A stretch of 64,000 nucleotides of DNA from Bacillota bacterium (GTDB taxonomy: Bacteria > Bacillota > Clostridia > Oscillospirales > Oscillospiraceae): positions 18,502 through 82,501 of the forward strand of contig JAJUHD010000001.1 of assembly GCA_029268085.1 (NCBI GenBank), in the 5' to 3' direction. Numbering within the stretch: position 1 is the first letter of the stretch; every line of letters starts with the position of its first letter. The translations under genes were made by a program, and so were the position numbers. Below are positions 4,394 through 63,190 of this stretch, piece by piece. A model generated the notes under the pieces. The model made no database searches and had not been told where the DNA came from. It saw only the letters and a program-made list of their open reading frames with translations.

Positions 4394-5857
4394 ATGAAGT
4401 TGAATAGGATGAATTTCAGCCGATTTATCTATTTTAAGGAATTATCGGAAGAATTACTGAAGCTCGACAAGAGAATATTGAAGGGAAAAGCGCCGGAAAT
4501 AATAAAAGAGCTGGATTTTCAGGCCGAACGCATATTTCGAAGGCAAAAAGGCGGATTTTGGGACATTACGGATGGGGACAAGGTTTTTATAGGCTTTCTG
4601 AAAGAGCTTGCCCGCTCTCTTCAGAGCGGAAATCCATGCAATTCCGTCGAAGAACTGCTCAGAAAGGCGGAGTCGCTGCGTGAGGAGAGGTTGAAAATAG
4701 TTTTTCTGGCACAGGAGAGCGTATGCTGGCCGTCGCTGGAGAGCTTTTACCATTCCTGCGTCAAAGATGAGCGGTTCAATACCGATTTGGTATATGTTCC
4801 GTTTGAACACGCCAACTCGAACTCCGATGTCGATTATTTCAAGGCCTATACCGAAGAGCTCAAGCTGCCGATAATAAGGCACAATGAATACAGCGTTTCG
4901 GAGGAGAGCCCCGATCTCGCCGTTTTCGTCAAGCCATATGACTGTATACCTATTCAATATCATATTGACGCCATCCATAAGGTCGTGGAGCGGTCGGTAT
5001 ATATAAGATACGGCTTTGAGATAGCCGACTACAACGTCGATCTGCATTTCAAGCTGCCGCTCGAGCATAAGGCCTGGCGTTTCATAGCCTACGGAAAGCT
5101 TGTCAAAGAGCTTGCCGCCAAACACGGATACAGAAACGGGGAAAATGTCGCCGTCTGGGGACATCCCAGAGCCGATATGTATAGAGATTTGCCGGAAAAG
5201 AAAAAAACGCTGCCCAAGGAACTGACGGAGAAAATAAAAAACCGGAAAACAGTGCTCTGGAACACGCAGCATACGATAATGCCCGGATTTGGAGCCGGAA
5301 CATACTTTCAGTGGAAAGATGAGATTTTCAAATACTTTAAGGACAATCAGGATATGTTTCTGCTTTGGAGGCCTCATCCGCTTATGTTCGGCGCCATAGT
5401 GAACAACGGTTTTATGACCAGGGAGGAGTTGGACGCCTTTGTCAGAGAACTTTCCGCGGAGGACAACATATTAGTAGACCAGAGCACAGATTACAGAAAC
5501 GCTTTCTACGCTTCAGACGCCATCGTTACCGACGGGACCGCTTTCTTCCTTGAGTACCTCTATACGGGAAACCCTCTTCTTTACACGCCGAAAAAAGGCG
5601 GAGGCAGCATCTACAACGCGGAAGAGATTATGAAAGGCCTCTATGTGGCCCGCGAACCGAACGATGTAAAAAACTTTTTGGACATGGTAAGGGAAGGGCG
5701 GGACCCCATGAAAGATGAGAGGGATAAGCTGAAGAACGAGCTTTTATATGTGCCCGAGAATAAGAGCGTCGGACAGAATATAGTCGACAATATCGCAAAG
5801 GAACTGACAGAAGAAGAAAAGAGGAAGGCCACATCCTTTTTTGAGGGTTTAAGATGA
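4394..5857 (+). CDS. CDP-glycerol glycerophosphotransferase (TagB/TagF family)
   Basis: 487 aa. The C-terminal block FYASDAIVTDGTAFFLEYLYTGNPLLY resembles the TagF-family signature, and WGHPR / WRPHP are His-containing loops. It overlaps tagD by ATGA. Confidence 0.7.
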   Translation: MKLNRMNFSRFIYFKELSEELLKLDKRILKGKAPEIIKELDFQAERIFRRQKGGFWDITDGDKVFIGFLKELARSLQSGNPCNSVEELLRKAESLREERLKIVFLAQESVCWPSLESFYHSCVKDERFNTDLVYVPFEHANSNSDVDYFKAYTEELKLPIIRHNEYSVSEESPDLAVFVKPYDCIPIQYHIDAIHKVVERSVYIRYGFEIADYNVDLHFKLPLEHKAWRFIAYGKLVKELAAKHGYRNGENVAVWGHPRADMYRDLPEKKKTLPKELTEKIKNRKTVLWNTQHTIMPGFGAGTYFQWKDEIFKYFKDNQDMFLLWRPHPLMFGAIVNNGFMTREELDAFVRELSAEDNILVDQSTDYRNAFYASDAIVTDGTAFFLEYLYTGNPLLYTPKKGGGSIYNAEEIMKGLYVAREPNDVKNFLDMVREGRDPMKDERDKLKNELLYVPENKSVGQNIVDNIAKELTEEEKRKATSFFEGLR

Positions 5858-23695: not shown

Positions 23696-24760
23696 TTATT
23701 TGCTGTACGCGATGCGGCTTTCCTTATAAAGAGCCTTTCTGAACACAGGATCCTGGAAATGGGAAGACGTATAGATATATTTGCCGGGCAGGCTGTATTT
23801 TGCGACAATATCCTTTGCGGCCTTGATCTTCTCGTCGTCAGCGGCGTCCTTGCCGAACACGGGGAGACGGTAGCCGAGCTTGAACTTGTCGCCGAAATTC
23901 CTGTAAAGCCCGTCGAAATCGTTCATAGGCTGCGGCCTCCACATATCTATGCCGGTTTCGGCAATGACGTCGGCCAGCTTTTCTATGTGTCCGCAGCTGT
24001 GCAGCTCAAAAACTACGTTTCTTTCATGGCAGTAGGAGGTGAGCCTTTTCATGTATGGCAGGATCATTTCTCGGAATGTCTCGGCGGAGAAAAACGGCGC
24101 CATCTGGGAGCCCCAGTCGTCGTGGAAATAAAGTATCGACATTCCGAAATGCTCTATGCATTTGTCGATTATCTTTTCGTACGTCCCGCAGAGAGCGTCG
24201 AAGAGAGCCGCAACGTCTTCCTTCTGCTCGTCGTCTATGAGGGCTACGGCGGCGTTTTCGAAGTCCATGAATGAGATGAGACGTTCAAAAAGTCCCGTAA
24301 ACAGCCAAACGAGGACAGGAACGTTTTTGTCGGAAAGCAGTTTCCTGTTTCTTTCCGCGCAGCCTTCCCAATCCCAGGACTCCACATCGGGGAATTTTAT
24401 TACCCGCGGCCAGTCGCCGATGTCGGAAAGCACGGGTTTCCCCGGCTTTACCATGGAGCCGCCCGCGACCGCTATGTACTCCCATTCCACACCGAACATA
24501 TCCGGACCGCCCTTTCTGTCCGTAGGATCGGTTTCTATGACCCAGGCCCTGGCCACGTTGTCGGGAATTATCGCGGGGCAGAAGGTGATATAGTCGTCGT
24601 TAGGCATCCAGCAGGGCGTTTCGTTGCGGATAAAGGCCAGATAGTTCTCCTTTGGCGAGACAGGATAATCAAAACGGTCCACCGGATGAGAGCCCGCCAT
24701 CGAGGCGGGGTAGGTTCCGACAATCTTCAGCTCATCTTCGGAAAAAGGGATTTTCTTCAT
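23696..24760 (-). CDS. Uroporphyrinogen-decarboxylase (URO-D)/MtaA-like family protein, paralog 1 (putative methyltransferase)
   Basis: Blocks FHDDWGSQ and LHSCGH (H-x-C Zn-type motif), with a TIM-barrel-sized protein. The start is taken at MKKIPF (ATG 24760) behind GGAGGTG; the ORF-track start 24889 lacks an RBS. Confidence 0.7.
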   Translation of the reverse strand: MKKIPFSEDELKIVGTYPASMAGSHPVDRFDYPVSPKENYLAFIRNETPCWMPNDDYITFCPAIIPDNVARAWVIETDPTDRKGGPDMFGVEWEYIAVAGGSMVKPGKPVLSDIGDWPRVIKFPDVESWDWEGCAERNRKLLSDKNVPVLVWLFTGLFERLISFMDFENAAVALIDDEQKEDVAALFDALCGTYEKIIDKCIEHFGMSILYFHDDWGSQMAPFFSAETFREMILPYMKRLTSYCHERNVVFELHSCGHIEKLADVIAETGIDMWRPQPMNDFDGLYRNFGDKFKLGYRLPVFGKDAADDEKIKAAKDIVAKYSLPGKYIYTSSHFQDPVFRKALYKESRIAYSK

Positions 24761-41397: not shown

Positions 41398-44349
41398 ATG
41401 AAGAACCTGAAAAGGATGCTTACATTGGTGCTTACGCTGGCTCTCGTATTCAGCCTGTTTGCCATCAATGCGAGCGCGGCCAGTTTCTCCGACAACAGCA
41501 CGATCGTAAACAAAGAAGCTGTTTCGGTTATGACTGAGCTGAACATCATCAAGGGCTACGAAGACGGTAGCTTCAAGCCCACCCAAGTCGTGACCCGTGC
41601 CGAAATGTGCAAGATGCTCTGCGTCGCACTCAACGGCGGCAATGACCCTGTACTTGGCTCCGACGCTCTCTCGATTTTCAGCGACACCAAGGGACACTGG
41701 GGCAACGCCTACATCGCATACTGCTTCAACTTGGGGCTCGTAAACGGTGACTCCGGCAAGGGCGGCACCTTCCGTCCCGACGCCACTGTAACCGGAACAG
41801 AGGCTGCTAAGATGATGCTCGTCGCTATGGGCTACAAGTCAGAGTTCGCCGGCTTCACCGGAGCCGACTGGGCGATGAACGTAACAGTAGCGGCAAACCA
41901 GAAGGGACTCTTCGACAAGATCAGCGGCCTGAACCTCTCGACGGGACTTTCCCGCGACAACGCGGCTCAGCTGATTTACAACGGCATCAATGCTGACAAG
42001 GTTACATATGACTATGTCCTCAGCACCAACGCCTCCGGAGAGCTCGTTTCGACCGCAAGGATCAAGGACATCTCCCCGGCCGAGACCATTCTCAGCAAGA
42101 ACTACGGCGCCACCAAGATAACCGGCGTTGTTAAGTCCAACGAGAACGGCTTCGTCGTAGGCGCAAAGCAGGACGAGGGCTACACCTGGATCGACCGTGA
42201 CGCCGACAACACCGTTGACGACGGCGAGACCTTCAAGGTCACCACCAGCGCCGACCTGCTCGGCCAGAAGGTAAACTTCTATGTAAAGGCCAACGCCAAT
42301 CCTTCCAAGGAGTGGACCGTGTTCGGCACTCCGATAGCTTCCTCCGACAACAAGATCGTCACCTTCACGGGCAGCAAGGCTCCCACGCAGTCCGAGGCCC
42401 AGTTCGACGACTACATGAAGGCCCAGGGCATTTCGGCCTACGCGGCCACCGTATTTGAAAACTACGGCGGCAACGCCAACTCAGTCGTGGCCGGCGGCAC
42501 CGTAACAACTCTTGCCGGCGCTTTCGCGATCCGCAGCAACGTGAACGGCATAGTAGTTAAGTTCATCGACAACAACGCCGACAAGACCGCGGACTACGTC
42601 TCGATAGTCAAGCCGGCCGCCGGTAAGGTAGTCACCTACAGCACCGCGGGCGAAGGCTACATCAGCGTAAGCGCTCTCACCGGCACCAACGCCAACGTTC
42701 CCGCCATCGCAGGCGAGAAGTTTGCGAACGTTATCGGCGCAGACAAGATAGCTAAGGACGACTACGTCACCTACTACAAGATGGGCACCAAGTGGATCGT
42801 GACGAAGTGCAATTCCGTTACGGCCAACATAACCGCCACGGAGTCCCCGAACGCTCTTGCCGGAACCACCACCTACAAAGGCTCCAACCTCGTAACCAGA
42901 TATGAGGAAAGCAACACCGCTACGACTCTTGCCGCAGCCGTCAACCTCGGAAAAGACTGCGTCATGTACACCGACCCCAACGGCTATGTCGTATTCGCCA
43001 AGCCCGCTGCTGCGGACAACAAGTATCTCGTAGTCATCTCCAGTAACGACACCCCGGTGATAAACATGGACGTCACCCAGCTCCGCGCGAAGGTCCTGTT
43101 TGAGAGCGGCAGCATCGAAATGATCACCGTTTCCAAGCTTGCAGGAACCCTTGTGAGCGGCAACTCCACCGGAGCCGAGCTTGACGAAGTATCGGCAGCC
43201 AACACCGGACGCATCTACACCTACAAGCTCCTGAGCGACGGCACCTATGACCTGACCGCCCAGGCCGCTGCGGACACCAAGTATCTCACCGGATTCAAGA
43301 CCAACAATCCTGTTCTCACCACCGCTGCTGGAACTTCAAGCGCAGACTCCAAGACCCTGTTCGTAGTCGCGAACGCTGCTAAGACCAGCGCGACCGCCTA
43401 CACCGGAATAGAGAACGCGCCCGAGGTTACCGGCCTCAACACCGCGACCACAGTCGGTATCGCCCTCAACAACTCCACCTCTGGCGTTGCCAAGGTAGTC
43501 TTCGCGATAGGCGGAACCGGCGCGACCTCGGCTAAGTACCTCTTCGTTCTTTCGAAGACACCGACAGTCACCCTCGACAGCAACGGCGCCAACGTCTACA
43601 CCTATAAGACCCTTGTAAACGGCGTCGCAACCGACCTCGTAGTAGAGGGTGCGGCAGCTGCCGGCGCATTTGAGAGCGCTGGACTCTATCGCATCGACAA
43701 CGCCGGCGCGGCCATTGCGATCAGCGCAAGCAACAAGATGACCGTAAACGCGATGCTCAACAACTACGTCACAGCAGCCGACACCTTGGCCTGCGCGAAC
43801 AACGTCGTCAAGGGCCTGGTAGTCAACCCCGACGGCACCACGCAGATTTCGCCGCTCACCTACAATGACAGCACCAAGGTCTATGTCATCGACGGAAAGA
43901 CCGTTACCGAGAGCAGCATCGGCGAGGTCGCCGTAACGGGCAGCGCGGCAAGCACCAGCAACATCATAATAACCAGAGCTTCCAACACCGTCACCGAGGC
44001 CAACTACAACGTAGCCGGCATCGTCTACATCGTGAAGGGCAACTATGCTGCTCCGGCGACTATGACAATGACCTTGGCCGGAACCACTAATGCCGGTGCG
44101 TACAACATGCTCAACGCCGCAATCAGCACAGATACCGGCGCAACCGCGGGTGACACCATCACGCTCAACGCCACGATCGCCAGCGGCACGATAATCTACG
44201 GTGCGGCGGCGGTAACCGGCGGCGGCGCGTTTGCCGACCCGACATTCACCATAACCGGCGCCGGCATCTACAGGCTCACCTACCGCATAACCGACACATC
44301 CACGGGCATCTCGTCCACCTACAATTACTTTGTGAACCTGGCTGTCTAA
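41398..44349 (+). CDS. Major S-layer protein candidate (signal peptide, three SLH domains, ~780-aa T/A/N/G/V-rich body)
   Basis: Signal peptide ...AINASA. SLH modules are FSDNSTIVNKEAVSVMTELNIIKGYEDGSFKP and FSDTKGHWGNAYIAYCFNLGLVNGD, plus a third. The body has low Cys/charge and is beta-rich. It has a consensus RBS, a strong terminator and codon bias typical of highly expressed genes. Confidence 0.85.
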   Translation: MKNLKRMLTLVLTLALVFSLFAINASAASFSDNSTIVNKEAVSVMTELNIIKGYEDGSFKPTQVVTRAEMCKMLCVALNGGNDPVLGSDALSIFSDTKGHWGNAYIAYCFNLGLVNGDSGKGGTFRPDATVTGTEAAKMMLVAMGYKSEFAGFTGADWAMNVTVAANQKGLFDKISGLNLSTGLSRDNAAQLIYNGINADKVTYDYVLSTNASGELVSTARIKDISPAETILSKNYGATKITGVVKSNENGFVVGAKQDEGYTWIDRDADNTVDDGETFKVTTSADLLGQKVNFYVKANANPSKEWTVFGTPIASSDNKIVTFTGSKAPTQSEAQFDDYMKAQGISAYAATVFENYGGNANSVVAGGTVTTLAGAFAIRSNVNGIVVKFIDNNADKTADYVSIVKPAAGKVVTYSTAGEGYISVSALTGTNANVPAIAGEKFANVIGADKIAKDDYVTYYKMGTKWIVTKCNSVTANITATESPNALAGTTTYKGSNLVTRYEESNTATTLAAAVNLGKDCVMYTDPNGYVVFAKPAAADNKYLVVISSNDTPVINMDVTQLRAKVLFESGSIEMITVSKLAGTLVSGNSTGAELDEVSAANTGRIYTYKLLSDGTYDLTAQAAADTKYLTGFKTNNPVLTTAAGTSSADSKTLFVVANAAKTSATAYTGIENAPEVTGLNTATTVGIALNNSTSGVAKVVFAIGGTGATSAKYLFVLSKTPTVTLDSNGANVYTYKTLVNGVATDLVVEGAAAAGAFESAGLYRIDNAGAAIAISASNKMTVNAMLNNYVTAADTLACANNVVKGLVVNPDGTTQISPLTYNDSTKVYVIDGKTVTESSIGEVAVTGSAASTSNIIITRASNTVTEANYNVAGIVYIVKGNYAAPATMTMTLAGTTNAGAYNMLNAAISTDTGATAGDTITLNATIASGTIIYGAAAVTGGGAFADPTFTITGAGIYRLTYRITDTSTGISSTYNYFVNLAV

Positions 44350-44384
44350 TTAGCCGGTTGACTCAGTAAGACCAAAAGCGCATC

Positions 44385-44412
44385 GAACCCCGGGGCTTCT
44401 GCCCCGGGGTTC
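44385..44412 (+). terminator. S-layer gene terminator hairpin (left copy of a duplicated hairpin)
   Basis: A 12-bp perfect stem GAACCCCGGGGC / GCCCCGGGGTTC with loop TTCT. A diverged second copy lies at ~44607-44634, followed by the U-tract TTCTTTAATTT. Confidence 0.8.
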
Positions 44413-44413
44413 T

Positions 44414-44604
44414 CAGCTTGTCAAAGGACTTGTTTGCAGCAAAAAAGCTTCGCAGAATTTCCGCCGCAAATGGCGGAAAAAAGTCAAATCTGTCATTCCG
44501 GCGGCGTGTACGTCTGAAATGACACCTCTCATGACGGGCGCGGCAGAGCGTCCGTCATTAAACTCCCTTGTCAAAAAAGCCCATTGGGATTTTTTGACAG
44601 TCTG
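44414..44604 (+). mobile_element. Copy 1 of a ~193-nt hairpin-rich MITE-like repeat
   Basis: Starts CAGCTTGTCAAA and ends TTTGACAGTCTG (imperfect terminal inverted repeats). It is collinear with 52594-52786 and with the reverse complement of 58452-58644. It carries a 1-nt deletion and a stem mismatch relative to the other copies. Confidence 0.8.
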
Positions 44605-44720
44605 CAAACTTCGGGGCTTCTGCCCCTGGGTTCTTTAATTTGCGCCGAGTTTACAATTGCCGAAGCAGCAAGTGCCCAAGGGCTTGTGCGCCTTTGTTTG
44701 GGAGCCGGCAAAATATTGCC

Positions 44721-44749
44721 TTGAAATCGCGGCGGAGATACATTAAACT
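44721..44749 (+). promoter_or_regulatory. Sigma-A promoter candidate for the ogt-alkA fusion gene
   Basis: TTGAAA (44721-44726), a 17-nt spacer, then TAAACT (44744-44749). Confidence 0.45.
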
Positions 44750-44782: not shown

Positions 44783-45850
44783 GTGCTTTTTTCGTGGGTA
44801 TACGACACCGCATTCGGCAAAATATGCATAAGCGCTGACGAGCATTCCGTAAAAGCCGTTTGCTTCGGCGAAACGCTCCGCGGCGCTGAGAGGGAGACGG
44901 AGCTTATAAAACGAGCGCACAGGGAGCTTTGCGAGTATTTTGACGGCAGGAGAAGAAGCTTTGAAATTCCCTTGTCGCCGGAGGGCACGGCGTTCCAAAA
45001 GGAGGTCTGGGGGGTGCTTTGCAAAATACCCTTCGGCGAGACGCGATCATACGGCGAAATCGCGCAGGCGGCGGGCAGGCCCCTGGCGGCGAGGGCGGCG
45101 GGGAACGCCTGCAACAGGAATCCGATAGCCGTAATTATACCCTGCCACAGGGTTATCGGGAAAAGCGGCGGGCTTGCAGGCTACGCCGCGGGACCCGGCA
45201 TAAAGAAAGCCCTGCTTGATCTGGAGAGCCGCTCCGCGCGCAGATACCAATACGGAGAGCGCGAGCTCGGATACCTGAAATCGCGGGACGAAAGGATGCG
45301 CCTGCTTATAGAGAGGGTCGGTTTTCCCAAATACGAGGTCATTCCTGACCTTTTCGCGGCGCTTGCCTACAATATAGTCGGTCAGCAGGTCTCTGCGAAA
45401 GCCGCCGAGACGGTATGGCGCCGGCTGAACGAAAAATTTGGAGAGCTTACGCCGGAAAAAGTGCTTTCCATGCCCGCCGAGGAGCTGCAGGGCGCGGGGA
45501 TATCCATGAGGAAGGCCTCGTATATACGCGACGCGGCTCTGAAGATAAAAAACGGCGAACTGGACGCCGCGGCGCTGAAAGGCATGCCGGACGAGGAGGT
45601 ATGCGAGAGGCTTTTCGGTCTTCGCGGCGTGGGCAGGTGGACCGCCGAAATGCTTATGATATTCTCGATGGAGCGTCCCGACATACTGAGCTATGACGAT
45701 CTCGGAATCCGAAGGGCGATAATGAGGCTTTACGGCCTTGAAAAGCTCGGCAGGGAGGATTTTGAAAAATACCGCCGCCTGTTCAGTCCTTACGGAACCA
45801 TCGCATCATTTTACCTCTGGGCGCTGAATGACATGAAGGAAGGTTTTTGA
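44783..45850 (+). CDS. Fusion protein: O6-alkylguanine-DNA methyltransferase (Ogt/MGMT) plus DNA-3-methyladenine glycosylase II (AlkA, HhH-GPD)
   Basis: GTG start behind GAGGGAGG. IIPCHRVIG is the MGMT active-site PCHR motif. LRGVGRWTAEMLMIF...YDDLGIRRA is the HhH-GPD motif with the catalytic Asp. Confidence 0.85.
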   Translation: MLFSWVYDTAFGKICISADEHSVKAVCFGETLRGAERETELIKRAHRELCEYFDGRRRSFEIPLSPEGTAFQKEVWGVLCKIPFGETRSYGEIAQAAGRPLAARAAGNACNRNPIAVIIPCHRVIGKSGGLAGYAAGPGIKKALLDLESRSARRYQYGERELGYLKSRDERMRLLIERVGFPKYEVIPDLFAALAYNIVGQQVSAKAAETVWRRLNEKFGELTPEKVLSMPAEELQGAGISMRKASYIRDAALKIKNGELDAAALKGMPDEEVCERLFGLRGVGRWTAEMLMIFSMERPDILSYDDLGIRRAIMRLYGLEKLGREDFEKYRRLFSPYGTIASFYLWALNDMKEGF

Positions 45851-52569: not shown

Positions 52570-52592
52570 AGCGGAGGGATCCTCCCTCCGCT
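52570..52592. terminator. Terminator hairpin, left copy of a perfectly duplicated 23/24-nt hairpin
   Basis: AGCGGAGGGA-TCC-TCCCTCCGCT has a 10-bp stem. The identical sequence recurs at 52788-52810 on the other side of repeat copy 2. Confidence 0.75.
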
Positions 52593-52593
52593 T

Positions 52594-52786
52594 CAGCTTG
52601 TCAAAGAACTTGTTTATGGCAAAAAAAGCTTCGCAGAATTTCCGCCACGAATGGCGGAAAAAAGTCAAATCTGTCATTTCCGGCGGCGTGTACGTCGGAA
52701 ATGACACCGCTCATGACGGGCGCGGCAGAGCGGCCGTCATGAAGCCCCCTTGTCAAAAAAGCCCAAAGGGCTTTTTTGACAGTCTG
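52594..52786 (+). mobile_element. Copy 2 of the ~193-nt hairpin-rich MITE-like repeat (best-preserved copy)
   Basis: The ends are CAGCTTGTCAAA...TTTGACAGTCTG. Internal perfect hairpins are CCGCC-N6-GGCGG, GTCATTTCCG-N-CGGAAATGAC, CATGACGG-N-CCGTCATG and TTGTCAAAAAAGCCC-AAA-GGGCTTTTTTGACA. It is flanked by identical 24-nt direct repeats. Confidence 0.85.
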
Positions 52787-52787
52787 A

Positions 52788-52810
52788 AGCGGAGGGATCC
52801 TCCCTCCGCT
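52788..52810. terminator. Terminator hairpin, right copy of the duplicated hairpin
   Basis: Identical to 52570-52592. It is followed by TTT and lies 2 nt from the stop of the minus-strand peptidase gene. Confidence 0.75.
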
Positions 52811-52812
52811 TT

Positions 52813-56237: not shown

Positions 56238-58232
56238 TTATGCCCGCACCGCAGCGTCGATAAGCTCGCTTACAATACCCGGGTCGGAGAGCGTCGCAAG
56301 GTCGCCTAAATTCTCGAATTCTCCCGATGAAATTTTCCTCAAGACGCGCCTCATTATCTTCCCGCTGCGCGTTTTAGGCAGTTCCCTGACAAAGTGTATC
56401 ACATCGGGGCAGGCGATAGGCCCGATTATGCTGCGCACCCTCTGCCTTATCTGTTCTTTCAGTTCCCGGTCGGCCTTAGCTCCGTCTTTGGTTATGACGT
56501 AGGCGCATACGGCCTCGCCCTTTATATCGTGCGGAAAGCCTACGACCGCAGCTTCGGCCACGGAGGGGTGATTGACTATTGCGCTTTCTATCTCCGCGGT
56601 GCTTAAACGATGACCCGAGACGTTAAGCACATCGTCCAGCCTGCCCAGGAGCCACAAATAGCCGTCATCGTCTTTTAGGGCGCCGTCGCCGGTAAAATAA
56701 TATCCGGGATGTGCGGAGAGATAATTTTGCCTGAAACTCTGGGGGCTGTTGAATACGGCCTTCATCAGCCCGGGCCAGGGCGCCTGTACGACAAGGCGTC
56801 CCGCAACTCCGGGCGCGCATTCCGTGCCGTCCTTGTCGAGCACGGCCGCCATTATGCCGAAGAAGGGCAGGGCCGCGGAGCCGGGTTTTGCCGGTATTGC
56901 TCCCGGCAGGGGAGCTGCGATTATGCCGCCGGTCTCTGTCTGCCAGTAGGTATCGACCACGGCGCAGCGCTCCTTGCCTACAACTTTGTAATACCACATC
57001 CATACGTCGGGATTTATCGGCTCGCCTACGGAACCGAGTATGCGAAGGCTGCTAAGATCGCGACTGAGGACCCATTTCTCGCTTTCCCGCATCAGGCTGC
57101 GTATGACGGTCGGAGCCGTATAAAAAATACTCACCTTGAACCTCTCGACGATCTGCCAGAAGCGGTCCGGTCTCGGGTAGTTCGGCACACCCTCAAACAT
57201 CAGCGTTGTGCCGCCGAGCAGGAGGGGGCCGTAAAAGGCGTAGGAGTGCCCCGTTATCCAGCCTATGTCCGCTGTGCACCAGAATATATCGTTTTCACGA
57301 ATATCAAAGACATATTTTGTGGTGAGCGCCGCGTACACGAGGTAGCCTCCGGTCGAGTGCGCTATGCCCTTGGGCTTGCCGGTGCTTCCGGAGGTGTAAA
57401 GGATGAAGAGCGTATCGTTGGAATCCATCTCCTCCGGCAGGCAAACCGAAAAAACGTCGGGTTTGCCCGTTTCCTCGTGCCACCATTTGTCACGCGGAGC
57501 GTAAAAGCCGATCGGCGTACCCGTATGGCGGACGACTATGCAGGTTTCGACATCGGGACAGCCCTCAAGCGCCTTGTCGGCATACTCCTTCAATGGTATA
57601 AGCTCGCCCTTCCTTCTGCCGGCATCCGCCGTTATAAGCAGCCTGGAGCCGGAGTCTCTTATCCTCTCGCCGAGGCTTTCGGCGCTGAAGCCCCCAAATA
57701 CAACGTTGTGCACAGCCCCGATGCGCGAACAGGCAAGCATCGCCACCGCGGCTTCCGGTATAAGAGGGAGATAAATGGTTACCCTGTCGCCCCTGCGGAC
57801 GCCGTATTTTTTCAGAACGTTGGCGAATCTGCAGACTTGGATATATAGGTCGAAATATGTAAGCGTACGGGTATCGTTTTCGTCCTCGCCCTGCCAGATT
57901 ATGGCGGCCTTATCTCTGCGCCAGGCAGCCGCGTGCCTGTCGACGCAGTTATAGGAAGCGTTAAGCCTGCCGCCCTCATACCAGCAATGGTCGCCCTTTT
58001 CGAGGCCGCCGCCGAGAACTCTTCGAAACGGCTTCATCCAATCCACGAGCTTGGATTGCAGCGCCCAGAATACCGCGGGGTATTTTATGGAAAGCTCGTA
58101 CAGCTCCGCGTAATGCTCGTAATTTTTTATTTGTGACCGTTCCCGCACCCTCTGGGACGGGAAAACCAGCCTTTGCCGCTGCGAGGCCGAAACGGTCAGC
58201 GCGGAGGATGCAGAAGTTCTGCCGCAAGTCAT
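56238..58232 (-). CDS. acs: Acetyl-CoA synthetase (AMP-forming)
   Basis: The start is taken at ATG 58232, 8 nt after GGAGGT (MTCGRTS...IKNYEHYAELYELSIKYPAVFW). Motifs are YTSGSTGKPKG, WQTETGG and the C-terminal PKTRSGKIMRR. The ORF-track extension to 58736 runs through repeat copy 3 and a terminator. Confidence 0.95.
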   Translation of the reverse strand: MTCGRTSASSALTVSASQRQRLVFPSQRVRERSQIKNYEHYAELYELSIKYPAVFWALQSKLVDWMKPFRRVLGGGLEKGDHCWYEGGRLNASYNCVDRHAAAWRRDKAAIIWQGEDENDTRTLTYFDLYIQVCRFANVLKKYGVRRGDRVTIYLPLIPEAAVAMLACSRIGAVHNVVFGGFSAESLGERIRDSGSRLLITADAGRRKGELIPLKEYADKALEGCPDVETCIVVRHTGTPIGFYAPRDKWWHEETGKPDVFSVCLPEEMDSNDTLFILYTSGSTGKPKGIAHSTGGYLVYAALTTKYVFDIRENDIFWCTADIGWITGHSYAFYGPLLLGGTTLMFEGVPNYPRPDRFWQIVERFKVSIFYTAPTVIRSLMRESEKWVLSRDLSSLRILGSVGEPINPDVWMWYYKVVGKERCAVVDTYWQTETGGIIAAPLPGAIPAKPGSAALPFFGIMAAVLDKDGTECAPGVAGRLVVQAPWPGLMKAVFNSPQSFRQNYLSAHPGYYFTGDGALKDDDGYLWLLGRLDDVLNVSGHRLSTAEIESAIVNHPSVAEAAVVGFPHDIKGEAVCAYVITKDGAKADRELKEQIRQRVRSIIGPIACPDVIHFVRELPKTRSGKIMRRVLRKISSGEFENLGDLATLSDPGIVSELIDAAVRA

Positions 58233-58451
58233 AATAAAGTACCTCCTGAATATCACTTTATTACAACATAGCCCCTTTCTGCTGCTTTCGGAACGAATTT
58301 TCCGCAAGCCGGAGAAAAAGAGCGCCTTAGGCAAAAAGCAGGGGGTAAACGGCGCGTTTGCTTTTTTTCCCGGCGCTGAAAACGTTTGGAAGGCGAAAGC
58401 GACCGTTTGGAGAGCAAAAAAAACAGAAACGCCGCCAGTAAATGCAGGCGG

Positions 58452-58644
58452 CAGACTGTCAAAAAAGCCCTTTGGGCTTTTTTGACAAGGGGGTTTAATG
58501 ACGGACGCTCTGCAGCGCCCGTCATGAGAGGTGTCATTTCCGACGTACACGCCGACTGAAATGACAGATTTGACTTTGTTTCCGCCATTCGCGGCGGAAA
58601 TTCTGCGAAGCTTTTTTGCTGTAAACAAGTTTTTCGACACGCAG
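58452..58644 (-). mobile_element. Copy 3 (inverted) of the ~193-nt hairpin-rich MITE-like repeat, in the acs upstream region
   Basis: The reverse complement is collinear with copies 1 and 2. The left TIR is degenerate (CTGCGTGTCGAAAAACTTG). A GCCGCC...GGCGGC hairpin plus a T-run abuts its right end, and only a partial duplicate abuts its left end. Confidence 0.8.
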
Positions 58645-58663
58645 CCGCCGCAAATAAAATGAA

Positions 58664-58688
58664 AAGAGCGCATATCAAATGCGCTCTT
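58664..58688 (-). terminator. Intrinsic terminator of the small ORF 58709-58894
   Basis: A 10-bp stem AAGAGCGCAT / ATGCGCTCTT, followed on the minus strand by TTCATTTTATTT. Confidence 0.7.
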
Positions 58689-58708
58689 CAAAAAACTTAA
58701 ATTAAACT

Positions 58709-58894
58709 TTACTTTGCCGCGACAGGCTGTTCGCAATATCCCCAGAGAGTTTGCTCTCTTACATAGTACGCCAAAGCCCGCTCATTCGTATTTGCTTCAC
58801 TGACGTATTTTTCAGCGTCTTCCCTGTAAAGAAAGACTCTGTCTATAAAGTTCACGTCATTTACATCGATGCCCATGACGACATATACTTTCAT
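58709..58894 (-). CDS. 61-aa hypothetical cytoplasmic protein
   Basis: ATG lies behind AAGGGAGGG, and the gene has its own terminator. No family was recognised (MKVYVVMGIDVNDVNFIDRVFLYREDAEKYV...). Confidence 0.5.
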   Translation of the reverse strand: MKVYVVMGIDVNDVNFIDRVFLYREDAEKYVSEANTNERALAYYVREQTLWGYCEQPVAAK

Positions 58895-62152: not shown

Positions 62153-63190
62153 TTATTCGTTGTACGCTTCCCGGCTCAGAGCATAAACGTATTCGAAAAG
62201 CTTTGCGGGCGAAACGCTCGGGCGAAGCGCGGCCTGAACGCCTCCGGTGTTTCCGCACTTCCTTATGAAAGCTTTAGCGGCCTCATAACAGGTTTCGTCG
62301 CTCGCATCGGCGGGCAGGTCGGCGGGATTTATAGCCATGATAAGCTTGTTTCCGTACCTCTCGCGGAGCGCGAACTTGTCGTTCATATCCTGCCCGCTCC
62401 AGGAATCCATGCCCGCTTCTATCATCAGCGGGACAAGCCGCTCGACCTTGCCGCAGCAGTGGAAATCAAAGTAGATGTTCTTGGAGTGCATGTAATCGAC
62501 GATCCTTTTTATGTAGGGGAAAATCATTTCTTTGCAGGTGTCGTAGGAGAAGAAGGAATCTCTCTGGGAGCCCCAATCGTCGTGAAAGCACAAAACCTCG
62601 ACGTTGAAATACTTTTTGCAGTTGTCTATCATCTTTTCATAAATTCCGCAAAGATAGTTGAAGAGGCGGTGAACGCCTTCCTTCTGCTCGTCGTCGATAA
62701 GCGCCATAGCAGCGTACTGGAAGTCCATAAAAGAGATGAGCCTTTCAAAAAAACCGGTCAGTATGGTTGTTTTCGTGATCAGGGTCGGGTCGTACTTCTC
62801 CTTAAGCTGAGCGCTGGCGCCTTCCCAGTCCCAGGAATCCACGTCCGGAAGCGTCACGCATTCCTCCCATCGGTTGATATCCTCCACGGTAGGCGAGCCG
62901 GGTCTTACGATGCCGCCCTTGACGGCGGGAACGTACACCCACTCTATGCCGAAAATGTCCTTGCCTTCCTTTTCGGTGCGGCAGACGTGATCGGGAAATA
63001 TTACGGTGTTGACAGGGTTCGTCTCGCCCAAGGCGAAGGGCATCCAGACCGGGACTTCCCTCCGATAAAGCGCCAGAGTGTTTTCTCGCGGTGCGACAGG
63101 GGTGTTGAATCGAACTATTTTACCGCCCATGACATTGTAAGCGCCGATGATTTTGAGTTCTTCCTGCGGATTAAACTTGACCCTATCCAT
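62153..63190 (-). CDS. URO-D/MtaA-like family protein, paralog 2
   Basis: It shares long blocks with 23696-24760: DVxSWDWEG, TGxFERLISFMDF, ALIDDEQKE, FHDDWGSQ and H-x-CG. ATG lies behind AGAGGTG. Confidence 0.7.
   Translation of the reverse strand: MDRVKFNPQEELKIIGAYNVMGGKIVRFNTPVAPRENTLALYRREVPVWMPFALGETNPVNTVIFPDHVCRTEKEGKDIFGIEWVYVPAVKGGIVRPGSPTVEDINRWEECVTLPDVDSWDWEGASAQLKEKYDPTLITKTTILTGFFERLISFMDFQYAAMALIDDEQKEGVHRLFNYLCGIYEKMIDNCKKYFNVEVLCFHDDWGSQRDSFFSYDTCKEMIFPYIKRIVDYMHSKNIYFDFHCCGKVERLVPLMIEAGMDSWSGQDMNDKFALRERYGNKLIMAINPADLPADASDETCYEAAKAFIRKCGNTGGVQAALRPSVSPAKLFEYVYALSREAYNE

Follow-up and report, generated by a model that had tools for sequence, protein, structure and literature searches.

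What occupies the space behind the SLH gene, where one terminator hairpin would be expected and two near-copies of it are found? In the window (i.e., the whole stretch of 64,000 nucleotides analyzed here), these two hairpins enclose a segment, hereafter copy 1, that an earlier note on this DNA had taken for a mobile element inserted directly behind an S-layer gene terminator, with the terminator duplicated in the process. The limits given there, 44385-44634, proved exact except for the start, which was one base late, as the left repeat begins at 44384. We consider it probable that copy 1 is the insertion of a MITE of ~193 bp that was mobilized in trans, by strand transfer at the feet of a cruciform, with duplication of the whole target hairpin. 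The features on which this reading is built are collected in Table 1.

Table 1. Features of the copy 1 locus and of the two further element copies, numbered from the first letter of the window.
Feature	Position	Strand	Basis
Upstream gene, 983 aa, SLH domains (S-layer/cell-surface type)	41398..44349	+	ORF list; Pfam SLH, E=5e-19
Left target-hairpin copy CGAACCCCGGGGCTTCTGCCCCGGGGTTCT; perfect 12-bp stem, TTCT loop	44384..44413	+	Sequence; MFE fold
Element copy 1, 191 nt, MITE-like: left terminal repeat, four hairpins, right terminal repeat	44414..44604	+	Alignments; full-length nhmmer match
Left terminal inverted repeat of copy 1, CAGCTTGTCAAAGGA (family consensus CAGCTTGTCAAAAAA)	44414..44428	+	67-copy consensus
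Internal hairpin 1, TTTCCGCC...GGCGGAAA	44458..44479	+	Folds; helix 1 98% paired over 68 copies
Internal hairpin 2; in copy 1 with 1-nt deletion and G>T	44492..44523	+	68-sequence alignment; helix 2
Internal hairpin 3, CATGACGG...CCGTCAT	44530..44558	+	Folds; helix 3
Hairpin 4, palindrome formed by the right terminal repeat and an inward-facing left-end motif	44567..44600	+	Pattern search
Right terminal inverted repeat TTTTTTGACAGTCTG	44590..44604	+	Copy alignment; consensus
Right target-hairpin copy CAAACTTCGGGGCTTCTGCCCCTGGGTTCT, then TTAATTT	44605..44634	+	Sequence; terminator-like call including T-tract
Original terminator T-tract TTAATTT, TTCT just before	44635..44641	+	Sequence; terminator scan
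Promoter-like site TTGAAA-17-TAAACT before ogt-alkA (context, outside the element)	44721..44749	+	Promoter scan
Downstream gene, Ogt-AlkA fusion	44783-45850		Domain search
Copy 2, left target hairpin AGCGGAGGGATCCTCCCTCCGCTT, between convergent VanW-like and M14 peptidase genes	52570..52593	+	Sequence, domain search
Element copy 2, 193 nt	52594..52786	+	Alignment; nhmmer
Copy 2, right target hairpin, 24/24 match, then TTTC	52788..52811	+	Sequence
Element copy 3, 193 nt, between LytTR regulator and acetyl-CoA synthetase genes	58452..58644	-	Alignment

The 30-bp repeats around copy 1 are identical at 26 of 30 positions, in line with the earlier count of about 30 bp with four mismatches, and the binomial probability of at least 26/30 matches at a fixed position is 2e-12. 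The left copy has the perfect 12-bp stem and the right copy runs into the T-tract, both as previously read from the sequence, while the right copy differs from the left at four positions, and its stem accordingly has two G-T pairs plus a mismatch. The target of copy 1 is the terminator of the SLH gene: it is a GC-rich stem-loop followed by a T-tract at the 3' end of a gene, by sequence call, and, discounting the insert and one repeat copy, the predicted terminator lies ~35 nt past the SLH stop codon. No T-tract any longer lies 3' of the left hairpin, and the order is now SLH gene, perfect hairpin without T-tract, element with a weakened hairpin 4, and slightly degraded hairpin with T-tract. 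That the insertion parted the first stem from its T-tract is therefore borne out as a fact of the sequence. The suggested consequence, altered termination with read-through into ogt-alkA, is another matter. The sole plus-strand terminator-like call at copy 1 is the downstream hairpin copy with its T-tract (44610-44630 plus TTCTTTAATT, a prediction of the scan). A raised level of read-through thus seems unlikely, because a T-tract still follows the downstream hairpin and ogt-alkA is preceded by a promoter-like site of its own; if anything, the sequence does not suggest more.

The same element was said to recur, and the window indeed holds three copies, two on the plus and one on the minus strand, that are 91-92% identical in pairwise comparison. 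Copy 2 is enclosed by a perfect 24-bp repeat whose sequence is unrelated to the copy 1 hairpin, as had been observed. Copy 3 has no clear duplication; the flank of its right end (at lower coordinates) is a hairpin with a T-tract, and that of its left end retains only a GCGGCGG remnant. Copy 3 is bordered (58645-58700 and 58410-58451) by the terminator of the LytTR regulator gene itself, AGAGCGCATTTGATATGCGCTCTTTT, and by another hairpin with T-tract that precedes the acetyl-CoA synthetase gene. We also observed that a mechanical ORF, 56238-58736, passes through copy 3, so the true acs start must be downstream of this copy.

We then analyzed the element family beyond the window. One 21-nt probe matched at least 106 DNA stretches in three other genomes, namely the uncultured 'Clostridiales bacterium' bin38 (JAJUGN01) and bin70 (JAJUHS01) and Sporobacter termitidis DSM 10068. 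A profile search (nhmmer) returned 137 matches, many of them at contig ends, as expected of a high-copy repeat, and yielded 67 distinct complete copies with flanks from four genomes. These copies, 189-194 bp long, define a consensus of 193 nt from which they diverge by ~6% on average, the Sporobacter copies much more; three incomplete copies (L099, L073 and L096) are remnants left by deletion. The family has imperfect terminal inverted repeats, CAGnnTGTCAAAAAA: the consensus starts with CAGCTTGTCAAAAAA and ends with TTTTTTGACAGTCTG, and over the 67 copies 13 of 15 positions agree between the left end and the reverse-complemented right end, CAGACTGTCAAAAAA. The only ORF of the element is a 64-aa frame with a TTG start on the minus strand. 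In all this the family has the properties of a MITE, being short, apparently non-coding apart from that one small ORF, bounded by terminal inverted repeats and dispersed in copies with target-site duplications; it is the length of these duplications, 12-40 bp and variable, that is unusual for this class.

Some copies belong to larger arrangements. In bin70 (L083:2405-2749 and L030:4-334), an internal hairpin links a full element to a second module of ~150 nt that starts with CAGACTGTCAAAAAACTCCC; this module is also found at L089:7757-7890. The composite moved as a unit, since its two copies have different outer flanks. In the L083 composite both outer ends are CAGACTGTCAAAAAA and one single duplication encloses the whole, and it is therefore these termini that define what moves. 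Separately, we noted same-orientation pairs of copies in bin38 and bin70 (L014:3382-3573 with L089:7543-7732, and L044:3325-3518 with L102:5802-5992) that follow orthologous genes of ~77% nucleotide identity, each copy with its own, internally identical duplication. Such pairs suggest repeated independent hits on the same terminators.

The duplicated hairpins at the flanks carry the argument. A direct hairpin duplication surrounds 58 of the 67 complete copies, with lengths of 12-40 bp (median 29) and perfect identity in 20 cases. The duplicated sequence is different at every one of the 58 sites, with no target sequence in common. Stems of at least 9 bp are present in 95% of the duplications, compared to 0.75% of random 29-mers drawn from the same loci. 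In 55 of 58 cases neither edge of the duplication is more than 2 nt away from the base of the stem, and the overhangs on the two sides are equal in 38 of 58. A T-rich tract follows or an A-rich tract precedes the hairpin at 45 of the 58 sites, a hallmark of terminators, and the orientation of the element is unbiased relative to these tracts. The shortest duplication, a single case of 12 bp (L003), is an AT-rich palindrome. Since the lengths follow the size of the hairpin and the edges lie at the stem base, it is the hairpin, and not the enzyme, that sets the length of the duplication; DNA shape rather than sequence chooses the insertion site of this family. Two earlier proposals, made from copies 1 and 2, hold for the family at large: that the duplicated unit is the local target, and that cleavage is guided by structure and not by a fixed distance.

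The remaining 9 of 67 copies, copy 3 of the window among them, lack a duplication. Each abuts a hairpin on both sides, the two hairpins being unrelated; two of them belong to a longer composite, and two others adjoin further elements. For these copies secondary events are needed, i.e., recombination between copies, neighboring elements or decay. As a further line of evidence we considered compensatory changes that distinguish one copy of a duplicated hairpin from the other, and dropped it: 11 symmetric pairs were found against an expected 7.7 (permutation), which is no enrichment.

A related genome supplies the empty site. The contig JAJUHC010000023.1 (locus L107) encodes an Ogt-AlkA homologue with 75% identity and shares with the window the gene order dnaK-grpE-hrcA, SLH gene, ogt-alkA, ABC transporters, marR, eamA and vanW. 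The spacer from the SLH gene to ogt is 159 bp long in this contig, compared to 433 bp in the window; it contains one hairpin, GAAGCGCCCGGCTTTTGCCGGGCGCTTC, followed by CTTTCACATTTT, and the element is absent. This single hairpin is as long as that of the window, likewise has GAA...TTC ends, and resembles it in the loop. The comparison of the region behind the S-layer gene in relatives, proposed earlier as a check, could have revealed tandem hairpins as an ancestral feature; it revealed one hairpin and no insert. A site polymorphic for presence and absence within a species was not seen.

These observations bear on the simplest alternative, in which the hairpins were tandem terminators already in place and the element landed between them, or in which the hairpins travel with the element. 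Tandem terminators are known behind highly expressed genes, and the copy 1 hairpins do differ at 4 positions. Nevertheless, we give this alternative almost no credence: the single hairpin at the empty orthologous site excludes ancestral tandem terminators, the hairpin pairs differ between loci and are therefore not carried along by the element, 20 of the 58 pairs are identical, and a match of 26/30 has the chance probability given above. We thus retain the reading of a target hairpin duplicated upon insertion.

On the same contig, a mosaic relative of the element is present at L110:17290-17530, downstream of vanW, at the site orthologous to that of copy 2. It has a different left end, GAGCTTGTAGACAAA, shares internal hairpin modules with the family, and has as its right end a bare palindrome of left-end and right-end motifs. 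A 22-bp hairpin, GGCCGGCCCAAAAGGGCCGGCC, is duplicated around this mosaic; its sequence is unlike that of the copy 2 hairpin, and a truncated second left end follows.

The element itself is highly structured: its fold has a z-score of -8.4 when computed as DNA, and of -9.9 when computed as RNA together with the flanks. Over 68 copies, changes on both sides were found in 9 stem pairs, compared to 2.8 in shuffles, and these lie mostly in hairpin 4, where 5 of 14 pairs show compensatory changes. In most copies this hairpin reads A6-GCCC-NNN-GGGC-T6 (AAAAAAGCCC-NNN-GGGCTTTTTT) and resembles a bidirectional terminator. Stability, stems kept by compensatory changes and a terminator-like end would all suit an element that mainly serves its host as an RNA or terminator module (a small RNA or a portable bidirectional terminator), with mobility secondary. 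We regard this as improbable. No Rfam family was found in the window at gathering scores, and permissive E-values up to 10 added only noise; no promoter-like site was called inside copy 1 by the promoter scan. Moreover, copies occur in both orientations relative to the T-tracts, the hairpins of copy 1 are damaged, and the upkeep of palindromes can be mechanistic. The Rfam search also disposes of a group IIC intron, a candidate we rejected for want of any match even at E up to 10 and for the mere 193 nt of the element.

The damage to copy 1 had been described correctly: the 68-sequence alignment confirmed the 1-nt deletion in hairpin 2 and the mismatch in hairpin 4, where GGGC is changed to GGGA and the loop is ATT. 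That copy 1 is older than the other copies, as was proposed from these defects, appears plausible, because its 30-bp duplication contains 4 differences, compared to 0-1 in most copies, and because hairpins 2 and 4 are damaged.

The 3-nt loop of hairpin 4 has a peculiarity of its own. Of 67 copies, 35 have TTT and 28 have AAA as the loop, intermediates are nearly absent, and the loop state is independent of subfamily structure, unlike that of six other polymorphic sites. This pattern points to a recurrent inversion of the loop ('flip-flop'). Among the target hairpins, the loop is inverted in just 2 of the 58 duplications (L001 and L036).

How could an insertion duplicate an entire hairpin? Target-site duplications result from staggered joining followed by fill-in. 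In the mechanism we favor, the transposase would be supplied in trans and would pick its target by shape: a GC-rich palindrome in its extruded form, as hairpin or cruciform, and in most cases an intrinsic terminator. In such an extruded palindrome the two 5' stem feet would face each other across the junction, although the full length of the palindrome separates them along the linear sequence. If the 3' ends of the element join at these 5' feet, the two joints are separated by that same length, and gap repair would therefore copy the entire hairpin to both sides of the element, giving duplications as long as the hairpin (12-40 bp). We infer DDE-type strand-transfer chemistry, a cruciform target and the identity of the transposase; an autonomous element bounded by such ends turned up neither in ~600 kb of related loci nor among viral contigs, metagenome contigs or plasmids.

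The loop inversion and the duplicated unit also bear on whether a different palindrome-measuring enzyme was at work, be it a Cas1-like integrase (casposase) or a process with a single-stranded or hairpin-primed intermediate. As in the established case of CRISPR repeat duplication, the unit duplicated is mostly palindromic and 22-37 bp long, and a loop that flips between TTT and AAA without phylogenetic structure hints at a fold-back step linked to mobility. Nevertheless, this origin appears very improbable: cas1 or a casposon context is absent from the window, the terminal inverted repeats of the element are typical of DDE elements, and loops may also be inverted through template switching in perfect palindromes.

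We searched for the enzyme that our preferred reading, a MITE mobilized in trans, calls for. No transposase was found in the window, where the 19 scanned ORFs, including those beside the three copies, are housekeeping genes. A 75%-identical repeat in the window (24041-24298 and 62501-62758) was examined as a mobile element and rejected, as it consists of paralogous URO-D-like genes (uroporphyrinogen decarboxylase/methyltransferase family). In ~600 kb of related loci, an autonomous parent was found neither by a regular expression for the end pattern outside the MITE matches, nor by all-against-all blastn for multi-copy segments, nor by a separate search for hairpin direct repeats 60-6000 bp apart. 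These searches returned only MITEs, orthologous genes and one REP-like repeat. The latter, TGTCATTCCCGCGAAGGCGGGAATCCA, is a hairpin repeat unrelated to the element that flanks a dnaJ-like gene in Sporobacter termitidis (L031:3284-3310 and 4788-4814), beside which a 20-nt tandem array, CCGCCCGGTATTGTGCCGTA, is located at L031:4638-4790.

Wider collections gave a similar picture. Viral contigs contained no match to either end pattern, metagenome contigs no match to the module common to the longer variants, and the plasmid collection no meaningful DNA match to the element. When IS1182 was sought through aph(3')-IIIa neighborhoods in two plasmids, IS6, IS3 and ISL3 elements were found instead. 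The metagenome contigs yielded 17 end-pattern matches, none with an adjoining transposase; five of them are other short elements and the rest chance occurrences in genes. The five (contigs L118, L120, L123, L126 and L128) have the terminus CAGnnTGTCAAAAAACT, a conserved GGGGGAGCnCGAGGG and a right-end palindrome beside a terminator hairpin, and are without Rfam match. As they share the terminus, the terminus type is wider than the ~193-bp family.

Among known enzymes, the leading candidate, by analogy, would be an IS1182/IS1272-like transposase. In this version of the MITE reading, which is a sub-hypothesis and no true rival, a DDE transposase of the IS1182 family (IS1272-like) mobilizes the element, itself a deletion derivative of such a transposon; we put this forward tentatively, as somewhat less likely than its opposite. 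IS1272 and TnSha1 enter terminators and other hairpins without sequence specificity (PMC4923244; PMC5678879), Clostridia have IS1182-like elements such as ISTte1 of Thermoanaerobacter (PMC12056078), and members of the family transpose with or without target duplication and recognize sequence or structure (PMC12056078). Against this, the surroundings of the element copies yielded no IS1182-family gene, and the outcome of IS1272 insertion is the opposite, with the hairpin deleted or replaced and not duplicated.

A bolder version is that the element is the first natural example of a mode of transposition that duplicates a whole palindrome, with the target read purely as a cruciform, and that it is driven by an undescribed transposase or by an IS1182 relative whose attack polarity is opposite to that of IS1272. 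This we consider unlikely. A fold-back of the element's own palindrome may take part, since the loop of the terminal palindrome appears to be re-randomized (TTT/AAA) at each move. If this mode were true, the element could spread almost free of cost, because it duplicates terminators and itself contains a terminator-like hairpin, and could rewire 3' ends genome-wide.

Why do these insertions matter? Shape-based target choice by transposons is poorly understood, and the sole well-documented case we found, IS1272, destroys its target. Here, dozens of natural insertions have duplication edges that mark the attack on both strands at the stem foot, which makes a model of cruciform attack directly testable, and the element, with its 193 bp and defined ends, is a compact substrate with which the enzyme could be sought and assayed. 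For annotation, the results mean that many 'tandem terminators' in these Clostridia are scars of one element. Each insertion also adds ~250 nt of highly structured sequence at the 3' end of a gene, which could affect termination and mRNA stability; MAG assembly may be affected as well, because many contigs end inside the element.

Both hairpin-targeting insertion sequences and MITEs are already known. Duplication of entire terminator hairpins, with the edges at the base of the stem, was not described for any MITE or documented natural series of insertions in the literature we consulted, including a 2024 review of prokaryotic MITEs, which contains no MITE that duplicates a terminator hairpin (PMC10969869). 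The present family resembles bacterial MITEs such as Correia/NEMIS, RUP, ERIC, Chunjie and SPRITE in being small, high-copy, intergenic, strongly folding and bounded by terminal inverted repeats, but the duplications of known MITEs are short and fixed in length (2-9 bp). Group IIC introns likewise insert by the stem-loops of intrinsic terminators, just after them, yet they are ribozyme retroelements with neither inverted repeats nor duplication. Extragenic hairpins also serve as insertion sites for insertion sequences that target REP palindromes, namely IS1397 and the IS110-family elements ISPpu9/ISPpu10; in contrast to our element, these recognize one repeated sequence (IS110 via a bridge RNA), insert inside it and cause no duplication.

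Two further classes of small hairpin elements were rejected as identities for copy 1. REP/REPIN-RAYT elements have a palindrome of 20-40 bp, a GTAG/CGTC tag and a RAYT gene, and lack terminal inverted repeats and duplications; here, the flanking hairpins all differ, inverted-repeat ends and duplications are present, and the window has no HUH gene. PATEs derived from IS200/IS605 have subterminal hairpins and a fixed 5' target of 4-5 nt, again with neither terminal inverted repeats nor duplication, whereas the present element has both and lacks a conserved flank. Closer in its geometry is the duplication made by Cas1-Cas2 at CRISPR arrays and by casposons, in which staggered attack at the borders of a unit of 14-40 bp, often palindromic, is followed by fill-in. 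Those systems differ from ours, which has no cas context, no one defined target repeat and transposon-type ends.

The closest parallel is that of IS1272 and TnSha1, of the IS1182 family in staphylococci, whose targeting of hairpins and terminators was demonstrated by Furi et al. (PMC4923244). In both systems a hairpin, often a terminator, is chosen by structure and without a consensus, the elements have terminal inverted repeats (PMC4923244, PMC5678879), and the same terminators are struck repeatedly and in both orientations. IS1272 is an autonomous element of 1.9 kb with a 548-aa transposase; ours is a 193-bp derivative for which no partner was found. Direct repeats of IS1182 elements are reportedly given by ISfinder as 0-60 bp, which suggests that isolated cases of long duplication may be catalogued. 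The decisive difference lies in the fate of the target. Our family has the sequence-independent hairpin targeting of IS1182/IS1272 and lacks the accompanying hairpin deletion: in the model of Wan et al. (2017), IS1272 attacks the 3' feet, and it removes part or all of the hairpin without duplication (PMC5678879), whereas the present element duplicates the hairpin whole. In the same paper (Fig. 13), Wan et al. drew a hypothetical 'pathway b', in which the 5' feet of a cruciform are attacked instead and the entire stem-loop would be duplicated as a result (PMC5678879). Their pathway was theoretical and came without examples; the 58 natural insertions described here fit it.
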